NCBI GenBank assembly: GCA_010093745.1 | Contig: MU005979.1 | Coordinates: 186,001 to 248,841, forward strand | DNA from: Piedraia hortae CBS 480.64 | Taxonomy: Eukaryota | Length of the DNA: 62,841 nucleotides | Direction of reading: 5' to 3' | Part shown: positions 7,581-31,567 of the stretch, in pieces | How positions within the stretch are numbered: position 1 is the first letter of the stretch | Layout: every line of letters starts with the position of its first letter | The notes under the pieces: model-generated | What the model saw: only the letters and a program-made list of their open reading frames with translations | What the model was told of the DNA's origin: nothing | The model's database searches: none | Position numbers and translations under genes: made by a program

Positions 7581-8060
7581 TAGAACAAGTTAATGTTCCC
7601 GATCGCATGACTGTGTAAGACTCGGCTCGTACTCGTTCGGACTCTTTCGATCTATCTCCCACGCTCCTCGGGTGTGTGGCTGCTGCTGGGTTAGAGCGTT
7701 GTCTTCCAGCTGGGTGTGCTTGTTCCTAGACTATTTCATTTCTTTTTTGAAGGTTTTAGCTGTGACTGAGAGGTAGGATTCTATCGGTTTTGGTTACGTT
7801 GAGAGGTCTTCAATGGTGTGCATTGTGTGGGGATGGCTACGCTACCAATGGGTGATGGAAAGTAAAGCTAGTGACAACAGTGATGCCTTTCCGAATATAA
7901 ATTGGTGCGAAACTTGCATAGTGTCGGAGCACAAGCTTTCTGAAAATCGGAACCTTCCGCATACGCCATCGCTCGCCCCCTCTTCGTCTGCACAACTTTG
8001 AATCGTTGCACAATACGAATAAAGCCTACTACACTAAACCAACGATGAGCGTAAACGGCC

Positions 8061-8888
8061 ATGGCAAAACCCGCATCACCCAAGCTAGCCTCGACCATCT
8101 ATGAAACCCTTTCAACGACGCCTTCATACAGGTTTCCTTTCAGACAGGCAGATCTCGATGTTGCGCTTCAAGGAGGACTAGTCAGCAGATCCATGATTTG
8201 CATTTCCAGCGAGCTCGGCATAACTTCCAGTCTCTTGCTGTTACTTTTAAGTAACAGTTTGCGAGAAGGACGAGCTACAGTTGTGGATACGGGCTCACCG
8301 TCTGTGGATCTGATAAAGCTACACTCCACCTTGGCCTCTGAACTGGGATCTACGAAGGCGATGGAGGCACTAGACAAGGCTAGGATAATACGGTCATTTG
8401 ACTTTATCGGTGTGGAGCAGAGTCTTGAGGAGATCAGCATGCAGGCTGAAGAGCTAGAGCCTGCAGTGGACGATAGTCAAGAAGAGGAGATGCTGCTTGA
8501 TCCTGTGATCCCTCAGGTACCGGATCTTCTCATATTGACTAATCTGTCCCATGTAGCTGCACCGTTAATTAGGGACAAGGGAGCCGAAGGCAGAACACGC
8601 CTCAACGCTTTTATGCGCAGCCTCTGTCAATTGACGTTGAAGCAGAATCTGTGCACTGTTGTGGGAAACGAAGCTATGAGTCACAATAGGGAGGGCCTGT
8701 CGAGCATCTTCACATCATGTACCCTCCATCCCGCACTGGGCAACTTTACAGACCACTTTGATGTGAACATTCTCGTCCACACCGTTCCGAGCGCCGAGTC
8801 AGCAAACGGCGACGTCATCTTGGAAGTGCTGACCGATCGACATGGAGGACGCGCGGGCAAATGGGCAACCATCCCGGAAGACATATGA
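8061..8888 (+). CDS. Rad51-paralog-like (RAD51D/RecA-fold) protein with degenerate Walker A
   Basis: LDVALQGGL, ATVVDTGS and DLLILTNLS (Walker-B-like) segments; LCTVVGN and HPALG match the RecA-fold order. Confidence 0.55.
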   Translation: MAKPASPKLASTIYETLSTTPSYRFPFRQADLDVALQGGLVSRSMICISSELGITSSLLLLLLSNSLREGRATVVDTGSPSVDLIKLHSTLASELGSTKAMEALDKARIIRSFDFIGVEQSLEEISMQAEELEPAVDDSQEEEMLLDPVIPQVPDLLILTNLSHVAAPLIRDKGAEGRTRLNAFMRSLCQLTLKQNLCTVVGNEAMSHNREGLSSIFTSCTLHPALGNFTDHFDVNILVHTVPSAESANGDVILEVLTDRHGGRAGKWATIPEDI

Positions 8889-22992: not shown

Positions 22993-24683
22993 CCCGCTGT
23001 TAAGGATGGGTGGTGGGGGCCCAGGGGGAGGTTGGTTGGAGCTTGTGATGAGGTGAGTGTTAGCAAGCATTGATGCCTGCAGGCTTTATCGGTCAGTCGA
23101 GCGGTGATCTCACATCCTGAGAGCACGAGAGAAGGAATATAGTCGCGCAGAAAACTCTCAGGGCACTCCTAAGCTTGCTACGAATGTTGTTGCTTTCGCT
23201 ATGAGATTGTAGGGACTGGTGGTATTTCCAAGCACATATATGTAGAGTAGTGATCCAGATTTGCCTGGTACGTGTTCCCGCGTATATGAGAAGTTTTTAG
23301 TACATAGACTTTTCTCCAGGTGGTAGGTATGCCGGTTTTTTCAAGATAGTTCTTGAAATTAACGCAACAGGAGAATTGGCCGGAGATCTGACTAAACACG
23401 CGTTAAGTGGTGTCCTCCAATCCGTCTGGCTCAGAATTTACTTTGCACAAACGCGCGTCATTCGCAGAACTTTAAACTTTATTACATGGCATGGACATAA
23501 TCACGTATGAGGCAAGGTCCTCGGAATTATCTTTAGGCAATCAGCAGCGAACGCCAAGCAGCGATTAAGGCGATGTAATATGCCTTGCTGGAATCTTTCA
23601 AAGACATAAGTCGTCGTCCGTAGGGTTTGATGACGTTTGCATCCCGGAAACGGGACCAAAGCTTGCCCTTCACAGACGGTTTGATTGTAGTGGGCTGGAT
23701 GAAAAACACGACGCCGAACTCAGGATGCACGACTGCTTGGGAATAGAGTATGGGGCCGTTTCGTATAATGTTGTAAACGGAGTAGATCATGCCAATATCT
23801 CTACCCTAAGCTTGAACATGTGTGTATCTCATCCTCATGGCCGTCTTACGATGAGACTCATAAATATCACGTATTCCATCAGCCGACTCAACTTTAATTC
23901 CGCCTTCTCCACCTCCATCCCGCAAGAGGCAGGCATGTCGGCTAATCCCCGGCTGCTCCACCGCGCAAGATTAGTATATATACCCCACTTCCCGGGGCTT
24001 AAAGTTGGTTAGTAACCAGATGGGGCAGTGTGATCTAATATACTATTCAACCCCTGATCGTAGGTTCGAATGTGGTGAGCCAAGACTGCCGATGCCCAAG
24101 TTTCAATGATTCGACCATACCCTTTAAGAAGTTTGAAAGAACTGGTTCTTCACTACACCGTCGCAACAGGGGTGGGAAGGGGAAGGCTTGGGAGGCTAAC
24201 AGATTCCTGGGTGCGCGATATTGACGGATTGCACCCGAATTTTTTTTCTTTTTTTTCTTCTTCTTCGTTTTTGCCATGTCCGACCCAGCTTTTGGAAAAA
24301 CTGCATTATTTTTTTCGCTTAATCTCTCTCGTACGCTTAGTCAACAGGAAACAGCAGGTCATTCAATAATTTAGAGTTCAAAGTACAAAGAAGATTATTT
24401 TTAGCAAGAGTCCCGTACAAATCATACCTCTCTACATTGTCATGTAGCCGAGTTGACCTACTCAGGCAGATGACCAAGAGTTTGAACCCTGCGTAGTGTT
24501 ACTAGAAAAATCTGACCTCGACATGACCCGTGACGCCACGCTCCACCCATCCACCCATGCAAACCAGAAATACCCTCGCATCATATCAGTCGTGACAACG
24601 ACACGCGAACATTACTCCACATGCACGCCTCTTCTCTTCTTCCACTTTTCATCCATACCTCTGTCCTCCTCCACCTCCTCCTC

Positions 24684-24684
<1 letters not shown>

Positions 24685-24755
<71 letters not shown>

Positions 24756-24786
24756 GTCGTCGTCGTCGTTGTCGTTGTCGTCGTCG
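24685..24786 (+). repeat. (TCA)~23 microsatellite followed by TCG/TTG repeats
   Basis: Directly visible; lies just upstream of ELF1-like copy 1. Confidence 0.95.
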
Positions 24787-24826
24787 TAACCTCCCCACTC
24801 CAATTATCCATCTTCATTACTTCAAC

Positions 24827-25257
24827 ATGCCTTATTCACCGATTGACCCCCTCCGCAAGACGAAGCGGATGACTCCTACCGGCCGCCGTGCCCGTAAGGC
24901 CAAGGTAACCCCGCCGCCATCCCCTTCGGCAGCAATTAACCATCTCCCAGCGCCCTGCTGGCCCCGTCAAACGCTTCCCATGCATGTTCTGCGAGGGCAA
25001 GAAGGCCGTCGTCGTTGAGCTGAACAAAAAAGATCGCGAGGGCCGCGCCCGCTGCGTCGAGTGTCGTCGTTTCTTTGCTTCGACGAGTAGATTCGGGAAT
25101 CGTGAGGTTGACCTCGTTCTGGGGTATATATTGCTGACTGGATGGAGCGATGGAGCACTGCGATATCTATGCCGACTGGGTCGATGCTTGCCACGCTGGC
25201 AAGGCCGAGTGCGATGAGGACTACATCAAGATGAAGGAGAAGGAAAGCCAAGGATGA
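24827..25257 (+). CDS. ELF1: Divergent transcription elongation factor Elf1-like zinc-ribbon protein, copy 1 (3 exons)
   Basis: Introns 24905-24950 and 25102-25147 give a basic N-terminus plus FPCMFCEGKKAVVVELNKKDREGRARCVECRRFF...DIYADWVDAC, matching the Elf1 pattern FxCxFC..CxxC..DVYxDWxDAC. Confidence 0.8.
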
Positions 25258-25269
25258 GGAGGAGGATAC
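24875..25269 (+). repeat. Left arm of a 395-bp inverted repeat (partner 26911-27305)
   Basis: By-eye comparison found no mismatch with the reverse complement of 26911-27305; the ORF track shows identical 77-aa ORFs on opposite strands. Confidence 0.95.
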
Positions 25270-26910
25270 AAAGATGAAGGTCGCGTACCGTAAGGCACAG
25301 AAGGTGTTGGCTACTGCTAAGAACACGGCTAAGGTGGTCGAGTGAGGGCTGGGTATTGACGCCGATGAGTTGGGTGTATTACAGTCTGTGGTAGGATAGC
25401 TTTTCCTGCCTGTCTAATGTTTCCTGCACATATGGTGACTTATCGGTGTTGGGAATGGACAATATGTGTACAGATTGACTGTCAAAGTACAAGTATTAGT
25501 ATTAGGGTGCCGTAGGAAGGCGATGTATATTAGAACTCCTTTATCCTCAGTCTTCCTTTACTGTGTACAGAGCAATCGAAATGTGCTTTATTAAGTAGTT
25601 CGTTGCAAGCGACGGTGCTTTCCATCTCTGTCGGTGACGGAGCATCGAAAATCTTCCGGGGCCGACGTCTGCGCGTACTCATGAATTTGACGGTCCTGAT
25701 AGATTTTATTGGACTGGAACACAGTAGAGGACAACGGGAGCGTGAGTGGTAATCCTTCAGCTTATGGACATTGATGTGCTTGTCTCTTTCGGAAATAAAT
25801 ACAGCAAATGTTCCCGACATCCTTGATCTTTTGCCTTGATTACTTAGAAAAAATAGCAATTAAAAGCAGTTAACGCTGAAGGAAGAAGCAAGCCCATACG
25901 AGCACTATGTAGACTACAAAGATCCAGACTGATTATCTCGGCTATACCAATCCTCTAGAATCGGGAGTGTGTTTGGACTTGGTGCCAAGTCATTGTTCAT
26001 CACCATTGAATATGGGAGCATCCCTATTTTTCTGTTAGTTTCTGCCGTTGTGAACTTGAGAGTCTTCGGGGCATAAGGAACTGCCTCACAGACGTTTTCA
26101 ATAGAAGATGAAAAGGTACTTGAGTGCACATTCATGCAGAAATACAAGACTGCCGTTAAAGCCCTTAACGGGACACCACCCGCCGCCAGCTACGAACGTT
26201 CCAATTCCCCGACCTTTTCCTGGGTCCTAGACTTACTCTTTTGCTTCATCGCCGAGTTTAGGGAAGGGGGGGGAAATATGGTGAGGGGGGTATACTCCAC
26301 TCTCATCACGCTATATGGTCAAAACCATTGCAGTTCCTTACCCAGATATTGGAGCAAATGATAAAGTTAAGGTTTCAACACCAGGGAACGGTTCATGAAT
26401 CGCGTGGGGCGTGGAGCTTGTTTATGGTTGTCAAATTTATACAGAAGTATGTGGTTTAGTACCCGCAACAATTTTTTCCAGTGGCCCTGCTTACTGAGGC
26501 TACGCTAAGGCTTAGGCTTGGCAAATGTGTTGGACTGCGATCAGCGTCGAGGATGGGGAAGCACATCATCTGCAGTTATGAAGTCGTTGATTTTCATCAG
26601 ACCCAAGCCAGAAAGCCCCACGCTCTATTCCTCTCTACTCTGCCTATTTCATGTAACCTGTCAAGGCTGCCAAAACCATGAGTCCTCAAAAAATGTCTAT
26701 TGTACCATCTACCGCTGCAAAGGGCCTGAAAGAAACATATGCGAGAAAAATTAAGTCAGACAGTTTAATCCTACCGACTGGTACACGCTCTACTCCTCGA
26801 CTCCAGCAGCCTCACCACCATCAGCCGCCTTGTGCGAGTCCTCGATGACAGCATTGGCCTTGGCAGCAGCCAATCCCTTCTGTGCCTTACGATACGTGAC
26901 CTTCATCTTC

Positions 26911-27305
26911 GTATCCTCCTCCTCATCCTTGGCTTTCCTTCTCCTTCATCTTGATGTAGTCCTCATCGCACTCGGCCTTGCCAGCGTGGCAAGCATCGAC
27001 CCAGTCGGCATAGATATCGCAGTGCTCCATCGCTCCATCCAGTCAGCAATATATACCCCAGAACGAGGTCAACCTCACGATTCCCGAATCTACTCGTCGA
27101 AGCAAAGAAACGACGACACTCGACGCAGCGGGCGCGGCCCTCGCGATCTTTTTTGTTCAGCTCAACGACGACGGCCTTCTTGCCCTCGCAGAACATGCAT
27201 GGGAAGCGTTTGACGGGGCCAGCAGGGCGCTGGGAGATGGTTAATTGCTGCCGAAGGGGATGGCGGCGGGGTTACCTTGGCCTTACGGGCACGGCGGCCG
27301 GTAGG
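26911..27305 (-). repeat. Right arm of the 395-bp inverted repeat
   Basis: Reverse complement of 24875-25269. Confidence 0.95.
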
Positions 27306-27352
27306 GACCATGCGCTTGGCCTTGCGGAGGGGTTGGTTGGTTGGTAAGGCAT
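26923..27352 (-). CDS. ELF1: Elf1-like protein, copy 2. The first ATG (27352) is out of frame by a 1-nt deletion; an in-frame ATG lies at 27311.
   Basis: Same exons and introns as copy 1. The N-terminal segment MPYQPTNP.RKAKRMVPT is homologous to copy 1's MPYSPIDPLRKTKRMTPT. Confidence 0.72.
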
Positions 27353-30300
27353 GTGAATAGATAAGAGTGGAGGTATGGAGTGTGAGCAAGGCAGGGTAGG
27401 AGGTAATGATGATGAGGAGGGCAGAGTTGAGGAAGACAAGTAGAGGAAGTGGAGGAGGCGTGCACATAATGGCTGGGTTAAATTTTAGCGCGCATATCGG
27501 GGTGAAGTTGACGCATCGTAGACGCGACTGATGTGAAGCATGGGTGTTGCATTAGTGGGGAGATACAATTGGCTACGGAATTGCTAGCTAGAAGTTGTTC
27601 TTGTAAGCACAGAGTGTGTTGTCCAGATTGCATCTGGGTTTCTGGAGATTTCTTCCGCGATCAGGTACCATGGTGGTGTTTGAAGGCTGGGCAGTAAAAA
27701 ATTCATGGTAAGGCCAGAAGCGACGTGAACAGAAGGGGTATGACTATCGTTATCTGTGGGGAGTAGGCGCAGCTGTCATGCACTGTGGTCCATTCTGTTG
27801 ATCGAAAGGCGGTGCCTCAGTGCGAAGGGTACAGCTTTCAAATCACCGTGGGCATTAAGCTAATATTATAACTCTTGGCCTTATACGGATTGGTTGGTAC
27901 AGTATAGGTATGCAAAGAAGACTTTCCAGAGTTCTTACCTCGCAGAGTTTGATAAGCCTTGGCAAATGCGGCGGGTTGCGGATATGTATCGAGGTAGAAA
28001 CATTTCACTTCGTCTGAGACTGTTCAGTGCGTCATCCTGCCTATAACTCCGCAGTATGTCATCCTTTAATGACCACACAGTATTCCACTTGGATCAATCA
28101 ATGCTAGGAGAAGTCCCTTGGTTTGATACTGATTACGCTCATCTCATATCTTCCTCTTCTTCCAACACCACAACCTCACATCTCTGTTCTCAACCCACCT
28201 CATCATAAACATCAGCAACCATCTCGAGCGACATGCCTTCTCCTTCTGTCACTACAAAAAAAAACGTGGGAAAAAAAAGAAAAGAAAACGCGGCGACAAC
28301 GCGTGGAGATCGCCTTGTTGGACGCACATCACTGACTCTTTGCGGTAAAATTGACTGGTATATCTCGTTGAAATTTGGCAGTTTTATTATAGAATGACAA
28401 GAGTGCCAAGCTGGCTAGTTCCCGAGCGTGCTAGGCTCGGGACGACCTGTCGCCCCTTATTCGATAATTATCAGTTGCGTGATTAGGGACCGTGGGTGAT
28501 ACATATGGCAACAGGTCTCCGGCAAAATTAAGGCTCTACCTAACAATTGGAAGTCTTGGCTTTCGTCGTAAATCGATTGCCAAACGTTTTGCAATTCCTG
28601 ATGATAGGCAAAGTCCGATCCACGATTGACAGAGGCACATTTTTCGGCCACATGCTTAGCGATTTTATCGGAAGTTGAAGCTGCGGTGTGGGCCTGCGAG
28701 TCGTTTTGCCACGGCCCCACTGTGCCACGTGAGACGTGCTGCTTGGTCTGTCTTTGAGACACATATAATCGAAGCACCAGCGCTTGATGTGAAAGGAGGT
28801 GGATTAAGCTGCTAGTGGAGAGCCACAACATTGCACCAGCTTTCCTCGAATGGCGTTGAATGATTTACGTATAAGCCTACAAAGGATCGACTTATTGACA
28901 TGAATGGCTGTTGCACAGGCCACATGCTGTCGCAGATCTGACAACTGTTGATGTTAGCCGGAAGCGAGTCCCGATAGGGCAAGGGTGACTAGTAACCTCA
29001 TCTCCTCTAGAGTCTTAGAAATAGGGTAGCAGCAACAACATTGTTTTTCATGTCACTTCCCATTCCTATATTCACTAACAATACGAAAGGTATGTGGTTC
29101 GTGCGTTTGCGCCTGACACGAGGGTCCCGCACTATTTAAGGTTCTCGATTTGCAACCTCTCTCTAAGATCTCTGGTTATGAACATCCGCTCCCAAGCTGT
29201 GAGTCTCTCGTCTTAGGCTTGCCAGAGTGCGAGAGACCATCCTGGGTGATGGAGTGCCTGTCATTTGGAGATACCTCTTGCCTCCTCTGCTTTTAATCGC
29301 CGGTTCTCTATACGGTTTCATTCGGGACGCGTCGCCATCGTTTGTGGGTCGAAAACAACATAGGCAGTATGCACCCATCAAACGGGCAGCGAGCCTAATG
29401 CTAACGTGCTTTCAGCATCTAGAGTGCCCACCGGGAGTGGCTTTGTTGGCAACGACGAAAACTTCCTCGTCCATGCTGGGCGCATGCTAGTCGTACGAAC
29501 GGGCGAGAAGTACAACGACGTCTATCTGGTTGCAATGCCCACCGTATACGCCTGATGGAAAGGACACACGCAAACAACGGCGTGGATCGCCAAGTGTGGG
29601 TTCGTCAAACGGAGAAAGTCCTCAAGCCACCCGTTCAAGAGGCAGAGGGCTCGGTTGCCAAGACAACTCGCGCCCAAAAGGACACACCGACAAAGCGTAA
29701 GGGCAAGGGCCAGCAGACAGCTGAGAAAGAGGACGAGGCCAGCGAAGAGACGGGACAGAAGGACGGTGTGAATGGCGGAGCGTCCAGTAATCGGCTCAAA
29801 TGGAGCCCGTTCAACCACCAGGGTAAGCTCGTCCTTTACAGCAACGTATGGTCGACAACCTAAAATGCGACCCAGGATTTGCCAGAAAACGCACCACAAC
29901 CACCGCCAAAACCAGCCACTGATCGCGAATCTCCCAACGCATCAGCGAAGCTCCAAACGACGGTATCTGTCAAGCAAAGCCCCTGATAAAGACCTCCAGA
30001 TCGCTGTGGTATAGCGACCGAGGCAATGTATGCTGCCGCATGCTTTCTACGCAAACGCGTCAGACATGCCTCAAGCATAAGAGGTACAACTTTGCTGCAG
30101 GGCAGTCAATGCAGACCTGCTCCCCGTCTCCGCAGATTTTGGCGGTTGGTCCCTGCGAAATTGATGCGGCGGCTGCCAACTAAAGCTAGTCACTCTGGAC
30201 AGTGTCTCCACTTCCCGGCCAACCACGCCGATTGTGGCCCGCCACGGCCGTCCAACATATCCACAAGCCATGATCATAAGCCTGTGGCTCCTGAGAACTT

Positions 30301-31567
30301 CAATTGGACCCGTTCCTGCCGAATCCTGCAACAGGTGGGCTATCACGCCCAGCCAGTGGACCCGTTACCGCCTTCGTAGAGGACATCACTGTGTGCTCGG
30401 CACCGGCTTTATCACTTAAAAGAGTCAAGCAAACATGATGCTCGGCTTGGCAATCTATTTGCCCTCAATAGGGGACAAATATGCCGCCTATGAACAATCG
30501 CTACACGACATTGAACCAATCTGCTACCTCGAAATGCAGTGGACATTCAATCCACAGGGTTAAAGAACGCCGAAAATTGGGCCCCTGATGGGAAAATCAA
30601 GAGGTCGAAGGATATCACAGTAGCTCAGCAAGCTGAGCTACGTTCAAGTCCGACTACGGGCCACCATCAGCTTAATCCGCATTGAGAGCATCTTCTGATT
30701 GGTCCGTTTCCATTCTCAATCCTCTAGCTGCGTCGGCAAGTGGCGTGCCAAGTCGACATACATCCCCGTCGACGAAATGCGCGGTCGATACTACGGATAC
30801 GATACGTGATGAAGCTCGCGCCGCGGGATTGTACCGTAAGCCCGCAAATCAGACCAAGACTGGCTATCGCAGCAAAAACAAGGTCGGCAGCGGGCGCACC
30901 AAGGCCACGATCTCTAATGACAAGAACCGTATCATCACGAAGGGCGACTGCTATTCGTCATGCACCATCTTCATGCCTGCCAAAAAACCTGCCAAGGCTA
31001 TGTCAGCGTCAATTTCCGTGCTTCAGCTGGCCGACGTTGCTGAAAACAAAGAGGTTATGGCAGAAAAGGCGGCAAGGCTTCTATCGCCCATCTTGATCAA
31101 TGTTTGCCCCGCTGGCTAGGTCCGGGACGTGTGGTGGGAGACATTCGAGCTACAAATGGAACTGGAGCCAGATGCGTACCGCTGGGCTCACGGGGTAGAT
31201 ATGGAGGAGTAAACTGCGATATATGGTATTGTTACCATTCTATCACTTTCCCTTTTGACCATGCCAAGATTTTTTTCATCTGCCAAGCCTCCAACATCAC
31301 CATGATTCGCAGAAGGGATTTCCAAAGACCCAGATGCAATCTGAACAACACACTCTGCGGTAGGTCCACTTATCTAGATTTTCTGTGGGTAAAACCTCAT
31401 TATCTCAGTCTTGGCACAGTTTTTGATACAGGAGGGATATAGATTGCACATAAGACTAATCTACAAGAAGCGACTAGTGATACACATCCGAGTAGCCATC
31501 CTACAACACCGCTTCATGCCGGAGGATCAAAAGTCCACCTAAACCTACACGAGACAGCAAAGCGTGT

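Follow-up and report, generated by a model that had tools for sequence, protein, structure and literature searches.

Concerted evolution of inverted duplicates by gene conversion is a known process, and the palindromes of the Y chromosome are its textbook case. Here, we describe a pair of inverted gene copies in the hair-colonising fungus Piedraia hortae CBS 480.64, whose predicted products belong to the Elf1 family of transcription elongation factors and which share a perfectly identical core of 395 bp. The pair lies in a stretch of 62,841 nt (assembly GCA_010093745.1, contig MU005979.1, positions 186,001 to 248,841 of the forward strand), which was analysed as a whole and is referred to below as the window; all coordinates are those of the window.

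Several surfaces of canonical Elf1 proteins have been assigned functions. The NHE motif of human ELOF1 is described as docking CSA and as being needed for transcription-coupled repair, not for elongation (PMC10948364), and residues S72 and D73 are reported as the pair that binds RNA polymerase II (Pol II) (PMC11645862). In the tail of yeast Elf1, an aromatic residue among acidic ones is reported to bind TFIIH (PMC11266705). With regard to diverged forms of elongation factors, Spt5m of Paramecium is described as a specialised paralog (PMC5416832), and a divergent Elf1-like protein of Toxoplasma is cited in PMC13289920. The latter is a survey of ten elongation factors in 227 eukaryotic proteomes, and its accessible text contains no discussion of Elf1 paralogs. 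Among the papers listed in a literature search that did not cover subscription journals, we found nothing on the Piedraia Elf1 locus or on fungal Elf1 paralogs, and a parallel Pol II machinery in fungi was not found either.

Two inverted copies of an Elf1-family gene

Both copies are predicted to encode an Elf1-family zinc ribbon with the Elf1 fold. A first-pass annotation of the window had described three exons, a C4 zinc ribbon and the motif DIYADWVDAC in each copy and had assigned the products to Elf1. All of these elements were found, and the family assignment is supported by a hidden Markov model search, with which PDB and Foldseek agree. Exon 2 alone scored 34.7 bits against PF05129 (cut-off 29.8, expectation value (E) 2e-08), and exon 3 aligned to profile positions 65-78 with 13.7 bits, below the cut-off. 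The four Cys follow the spacing CxxC-x20-CxxC, the 20 residues being shared by 116/116 reference proteins (motif counts are given throughout over 116 parsed proteins, and identities refer to 30 named proteins chosen from 120 listed). The helix motif D-x-Y-x-D-W-x-D-A-C is present as well. The top 12 of 14 matches in a PDB sequence search were Elf1/ELOF1 chains. An AlphaFold model of the partial protein deposited at NCBI (predicted local distance difference test 77.5) shows a three-strand sheet and a helix, and its top 8 Foldseek matches were all Elf1/ELOF1 (template modelling score 0.67-0.79; best E 1.4e-3, none at E 0.001). A phmmer search of exon 2 against 1.84 billion representatives returned three matches at E 0.001, namely P0001 and two weak, unrelated-looking ones, and P0001 was the sole candidate each time in word-index protein searches with the window frames or with P0001 itself as query.

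Copy A is encoded on the forward strand. Its exon 1 (24827..24904) begins with a first ATG at 24827, which has A at -3 and is in frame with a second ATG at 24869, and encodes a basic N-terminal stretch. Intron 1 (24905..24950; 46 nt, GT..CAG, phase 0) ends 8 codons ahead of the ribbon's first Phe, and exon 2 (24951..25101) encodes the C4 ribbon with EGK in place of NHE. In our preferred model, intron 2 (25102..25147; 46 nt, phase 1) has the donor GTGAGG, a branch-like CTGAC and the acceptor GAG, and exon 3 (25148..25257) encodes the DIYADWVDAC helix and a tail of 21 residues up to the stop codon TGA at 25255-25257. The predicted spliced product has 112 aa. Copy B is arranged in the same way on the reverse strand, with exon 1 at 27276..27352 (first ATG 27352, second ATG 27311), intron 1 at 27230..27275, exon 2 with the zinc ribbon at 27079..27229, intron 2 at 27033..27078, and exon 3 with the stop codon at 26923..27032.

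The three exons described in the first pass thus stand, but more than one splice model fits intron 2: the domain is preserved by four GT-AG models, whose scores of 53.4-55.0 bits against a profile of 120 Elf1 proteins lie within 1.6 bits of each other. We prefer 25102-25147 because of its GTGAGG donor, its phase 1 position behind an Asn codon, which is that of canonical genes, and the resulting linker of 17 residues; the NCBI model places the intron at 25107-25155. The genes, described in the first pass as invisible among the listed open reading frames, are not unannotated. Under the consecutive accessions KAF2860723.1 and KAF2860724.1, NCBI lists two hypothetical proteins of Piedraia hortae CBS 480.64, both partial, 65 aa long and identical to each other, with a precomputed PF05129 match. 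The exon 2 frame matches this protein at 100%.

For a comparison of gene structure, at least 119 ELF1 loci were retrieved from metagenomes with a pattern that misses proteins with Glu before Trp (e.g. that of Hortaea); the 41 loci that look like filamentous ascomycetes were taken from this set. In 35 of these 41, an intron acceptor lies in phase 0 at 7 codons before the first Phe (8 codons in the Piedraia copies), and a phase 1 intron is present in 32 and absent from 9. Judged by position and phase, both predicted Piedraia introns appear to correspond to canonical ELF1 introns: the phases match and each is offset by about one codon. The canonical intron after the ATG is absent in the Piedraia copies.

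The two genes are convergent (tail-to-tail). The longest exact run on the inverted diagonal is 395 nt and joins 24875-25269 on the forward strand with 26911-27305 on the reverse strand, exactly as had been reported in the first pass. In addition to both 46-nt introns, exon 2 and exon 3, it takes in the greater part of exon 1 downstream of the second ATG and a frame break described below. The cores are separated by a spacer of 1641 bp (25270..26910), which contains both diverged 3' ends and is spanned by one contig of a public sequencing run. A repeat finder placed the arms at 483 nt with 96% identity, by far the largest among 9 inverted pairs of the window. The flanks have clearly diverged, again in agreement with the first reading: over the ungapped positions 24848-24874 and 25270-25330, 17/88 differ (11 transitions, 6 transversions). 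At this rate, the probability of finding no difference in 395 nt is ~1e-37, and in the 92 intron bases ~3e-9, the rate itself being slightly overstated because the flanks begin at the first mismatch. The 95% upper bound of core divergence is 0.8%, compared to a corrected flank distance of 22%. Weaker, gapped homology reaches ~24570/27550 upstream and ~25430/26750 downstream, and the duplicated unit therefore measures ~0.85 kb. The diverged upstream part of this homology (24570..24874, forward strand, matching 27306-27550) covers the promoter and 5' leader. It is interrupted in copy A by a microsatellite (~24683-24788) of long TCA and then TCG runs, which is found only in the upstream region of copy A, with a short remnant in copy B, and lies ~85 bp outside the converted tract.

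The contrast between an exact core and flanks with 17/88 differences, together with run contigs that show the convergent pair, supports the earlier proposal of an old inverted duplication that was homogenised recently. We consider recent gene conversion between the arms highly likely. Repeat-induced point mutation (RIP) was ruled out as the source of the flank differences, 6 of the 17 being transversions and the TpA/ApT index of the arm being 0.46. According to genome comparisons in PMC11412873, RIP-affected sequence amounts to 0.02% in P. hortae, with no large RIP regions, compared to 0.78% in Baudoinia and 7.49% in Teratosphaeria nubilosa.

Divergence from canonical Elf1 and a truncating frame break

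The analysis supports a strong divergence of the pair. Identity of the core domain to the 30 fungal references is 27-42%, compared to 47-100% among the references themselves (median 71%, 435 pairs). Of 28 columns with a conservation of 90% or more among the references, 18 are kept, among them the four Cys and D-Y-D-W-D-A-C, and 10 are lost. As these 18 columns are retained and the introns match canonical phases, the spliced gene has presumably been under selection for a long time. An NHE motif follows the second Cys in 105/116 references and its Glu is found in 116/116, at which position the Piedraia copies carry EGK. The Asp equivalent to D73 of human ELOF1 is kept. The C-terminal tail has 21 residues compared to 43-102 in the 116 references. 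An acidic F-I tail pattern, present in 62/116 references, has no match in the Piedraia copies; in their tail, a Tyr follows E-D residues and basic residues come next. The 17-residue linker of the preferred splice model is otherwise found only in the Hortaea/Meristemomyces group (4/116), the remaining references having 15 residues in 105 cases and 32-34 in 7. The four Elf1 proteins of this group (P0101, P0102, P0112, P0117) have a two-residue insertion before the C-terminal helix in common and form a well-supported, longer-branched clade.

Three features that were not remarked on in the first-pass annotation bear on the coding capacity of the pair: a frame break in exon 3, the GAG acceptor of intron 2, and a first ATG of copy B that is not in frame. 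Past the stop codon, the +1 frame is open for 33 codons in copy A (25244..25345, forward strand) and for 48 codons in copy B (26790..26936, reverse strand). Using a home-made score derived from 7706 codons of 12 window reading frames, we obtained 0.35 (A) and 0.39 (B) bits per codon for these tails, and 0.26 and 0.32 outside the core. Among 1003 stop-free intergenic windows the 99th percentile was 0.18, and among off-frame coding windows it was 0.19-0.20. A 37-nt unit of the Elf1 frame is found again, with 26 matching positions, 43 nt further on in the +1 frame. The break lies between 25235 and 25254, within the identical core, where the run contig shows no gap. Coding-like codon use suggests that the tail beyond the break was probably once translated. 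A third intron that would rescue the tail was ruled out, because an intron that used the GT at 25209 would measure 34 nt, be rich in purines and have no branch site. In copy B, the first ATG (27352) stands 41 nt, not 42, ahead of the second ATG (27311), and this spacing puts it out of frame, so that it would give a 49-aa junk product; only the second ATG yields an Elf1 product, of 98 aa. Together, the frame break, the GAG acceptor and the out-of-frame ATG make partial or complete pseudogenisation a serious possibility.

We propose the following history for the locus. An extra ELF1 copy would have moved away from the ancestral locus and diverged fast, while selection kept the zinc ribbon, the Pol II-binding helix and the splice donors. 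An inverted duplication of ~0.85 kb, promoter and 3' end included, may then have given rise to two copies that drifted to ~19% difference, before a recent non-reciprocal recombination event (gene conversion) copied 395 bp of one arm onto the other. The near absence of RIP may let such repeats persist. In the order of events that we reconstruct, the converted tract would have brought the +1 frame break into both copies, so that translation would stop 21 residues past the last conserved Cys and the older tail would go unread. Copy A could give a short-tailed Elf1 variant of 112 aa, and copy B would need leaky scanning past its out-of-frame ATG. The protein, if made, should ride elongating Pol II; with neither NHE as a docking motif nor a long acidic tail left, it would serve elongation, not transcription-coupled repair. 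Whether the pair has a present-day function is, in our estimate, an evenly balanced question.

The same history may have ended with both copies dead, conversion having spread a lesioned allele. Such an outcome would account for the three independent defects, two of them shared (frame break and GAG acceptor) and one specific to copy B (the first ATG), for the loss of 10/28 conserved columns including the Glu found in 116/116 references, and for the partial nature of the public gene models. However, the four Cys, the C-terminal motif, both splice donors and the branch-like site are intact, and the domain contains neither a stop codon nor a frame break despite ~60-70% amino-acid divergence. In addition, the frame break comes after the domain, at a place where animal ELOF1 chains of 83-85 aa also end. 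We regard the death of both copies as rather unlikely.

Genomic context, read support and remaining alternatives

ELF1 microsynteny was examined in those 29 of the 41 loci that had longer flanks, several of which are near-duplicates and none of which is known from the closest family. A GTP cyclohydrolase gene was found upstream in 22 and a uracil phosphoribosyltransferase (UPRTase) gene downstream in 24; 17 loci had both and 29/29 had at least one. The block, with GTP cyclohydrolase head-to-head and UPRTase tail-to-tail, often followed by WAPL, reaches ~2.3 kb upstream and 1.4 kb downstream of ELF1 and occurs in widely different filamentous ascomycetes (e.g. L009, L020, L022, L023, L036, L038, L042); only the upstream gene is kept in L010, L026, L031, L052 and L056. 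Neither neighbour is present in the 62.8-kb window (tblastn of the neighbours, no match at E 0.01). The missing neighbours suggest that the Elf1 pair probably represents extra copies and not the sole ortholog.

Alternatively, the pair could be the only ELF1 of the species, a relocated ortholog whose fast evolution would reflect relaxed selection in a reduced genome and which was duplicated where it now lies. In line with this, no other Piedraia Elf1 was seen among the best 120 of 2172 profile matches, and P. hortae is reported to have the smallest genome and the fewest genes among 101 Dothideomycetes (16.95 Mb, 7,572 genes; PMC7082219). The 17-residue linker of the Hortaea/Meristemomyces type would fit local descent, and it would fit a lineage-specific duplicate too. 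However, identity to the Hortaea/Meristemomyces proteins is 33-40%, no higher than to distant fungi, and the ancestral neighbour genes are absent. Moreover, conservation of the adjoining AFG3-like gene remains high (630 bits against human AFG3L2), so that the extreme divergence seems specific to Elf1 and not window-wide, one gene being a rough control. A sole ortholog in this position appears unlikely.

The first-pass annotation had also pointed to assembly collapse as a possible source of the identical core. The source assembly was built from short reads (Illumina 270-bp and 4.5-kb libraries, AllPaths-LG; supplementary row of PMC7082219), and one public DNA run, which may be the source sample, matches the stretch in the form of contigs that leave out rare variants. 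No RNA run was among those listed as matching the 3.3-kb query, a result that has no bearing on expression and in which small RNAs would be hidden. Identity could then be a consensus artefact in which one core was given to two similar copies, the core being longer than the fragments. The contigs speak against this. One of them (25240-26940) contains both diverged 3' ends in convergent orientation, branches at the inner core edges and ends exactly 30 nt inside each core, in the way expected of a 31-mer graph at an exact repeat. A second one (26911-29011, record 4) covers the whole right core without differences, alternative letters or gaps. Two copies with 19% difference would have hardly any 31-mers in common and would not be merged; therefore, the cores must already have been nearly identical, for which recent homogenisation is needed. 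At most a few differences could be hidden, which would leave the conversion reading unchanged, and we consider an artefact very unlikely. The depth of the core-bearing contig is 14.4, with 14.2 expected for a two-copy core and 12.1 for one copy, and the outer contigs have 11.9-12.3; this two-copy signal is weak because the spacer contig stands at 13.6. Mistaken joining of heterozygous alleles was ruled out, one contig having both 3' ends and the long contigs showing no other letters. The orientation of the spacer is beyond the reach of short-read contigs, with the 395-bp repeat in between.

The idea that the arms form a working device, flipping the spacer to swap 3' ends between promoters or giving hairpin double-stranded RNA on read-through, is highly improbable: perfect inverted arms of 395 bp at a distance of 1.64 kb are able to recombine, and promoter, start context and 3' end are not the same in the two copies, but no recombinase or other Pfam family scored above cut-off in 96 frames around the pair, a hairpin would require read-through of 1.6 kb, and a flip would change only 3' untranslated ends and not the protein, because both copies stop inside the identical core.

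A number of observations weigh against the history that we propose. A phylogeny, as suggested in the first pass, was built from 31 cores and did recover a long terminal branch (6.45 compared to a median of 0.1), but the protein cannot be placed in it. The coding score of the severed tails is raised by their K/E/A-rich sequence. Differences between the tails of copies A and B fall on third codon positions in 5/11 cases, without significant third-position bias, and a frame break younger than the duplication is accordingly not established. Every model of intron 2 has a GAG acceptor, which occurs in 0/32 homologous introns (16 TAG, 13 CAG, 3 AAG), and the NCBI gene models are partial. To these can be added the composition of the synteny sample and the depth of the spacer contig mentioned above, as well as the lack of a normal Piedraia ELF1 among the best 120 of 2172 profile matches, although this selection favours less diverged proteins (Hortaea ranks 99th). 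Finally, the junction of left flank and left core is not bridged by any listed contig, and these contigs leave the greater part of the left core uncovered. Taken as a whole, the sequence of a relocated extra ELF1, an inverted duplication, recent conversion and a copy A that possibly still makes a short-tailed Elf1 is a tentative reading, to which we give somewhat less than an even chance. Going further, copy A could be a live, specialised Elf1 of a second, fast-evolving Pol II toolkit, which would bind Pol II, would have shed its repair-docking surfaces and might act in stage-specific or non-coding transcription like Spt5m in Paramecium, mirror pairs being mended by conversion where RIP is lacking; we regard such a scenario as quite doubtful.

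Other features of the surrounding sequence were recorded. The Pfam scan covered 96 of 110 listed frames of at least 45 aa between 22990 and 31560 (14 that overlap the Elf1 genes or the microsatellite were excluded) and gave two matches, both below cut-off; none of the spacer's reading frames of at least 45 aa matched a Pfam family above cut-off. At gathering score neither ARAGORN nor Rfam gave a match, and the matches in 23800-31500 were at chance level only. A multi-copy element at 23955-24274, to which other run contigs align with many differences (at 24045-24234, one with 19 substitutions and 3 gaps), has a B-box-like GTTCGAAT and a T-rich end and resembles a short interspersed element, with no tRNA support from ARAGORN, Rfam or folding. 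A tRNA-like stretch at 24010-24110 was rejected since it folds no better than shuffles (z 0.66). A high-copy repeat of ~130 bp at 28945-29081 reaches a summed contig depth of ~680, with many loose ends at both edges. It is bounded by TGTTAG and CTAACA in the manner of a solo long terminal repeat, and a matching target-site duplication was sought by eye and not seen. A second, older inverted pair (27610-27723 / 31249-31357; 116 bp, 76% identity, 3.5 kb apart) lies just upstream of copy B; a coding match was looked for in it and none was found. Lysine-rich frames without a Pfam family at 29375-29863 and 30676-31119, both on the forward strand, may be orphan or decayed genes, the first being preceded by an intron-like stretch (GTATGC..GCTAAC..CAG). 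A 277-aa frame at 8055-8888 (forward strand) had no Pfam match at E 0.1; by eye, it presumably resembles a degenerate RecA/Rad51-paralog fold.

Comparison with known systems

The unusual part of this locus is the strongly remodelled Elf1, conversion between inverted duplicates being already known. An Elf1 copy that keeps the motif on the Pol II side and is without the repair-docking motif and the long tail would be a natural separation-of-function variant. The locus also illustrates clearly how neighbouring inverted duplicates can undergo conversion in a filamentous fungus that has next to no RIP, a truncating lesion being spread in the process. If the copies are dead, the pair is an ordinary decaying duplicate.

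For the comparison with canonical Elf1/ELOF1, we used Elf1 of S. cerevisiae, Komagataella Elf1 (PDB 5xog_M), the Hortaea werneckii protein P0102, human ELOF1 (8b3d_M) and PF05129. The predicted Piedraia products share with these the C4 ribbon with its 20-residue spacing, the three-strand sheet and the C-terminal helix, the D-x-Y-x-D-W-x-D-A-C motif with the D73-equivalent Asp, the basic N-terminus and two introns in canonical phase. In contrast to canonical Elf1, they have only 27-42% identity, EGK for NHE, a 21-residue tail and no acidic F-I pattern; they also lack the MGKR start and the intron after the ATG, lie off the conserved locus and are present in two copies.

As in other systems of inverted-duplicate conversion, a perfect tract extends over introns and silent sites, divergence outside it is graded and the arms are closely spaced. 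In Piedraia, by contrast, a single short tract is involved, the pair consists of two genes, the fungus is haploid, and a truncating frame break was spread as well. What the pair would share with Spt5m and the Toxoplasma protein is its nature as a second, diverged form of an elongation factor that is otherwise conserved and single. It differs from these in that it carries lesions.

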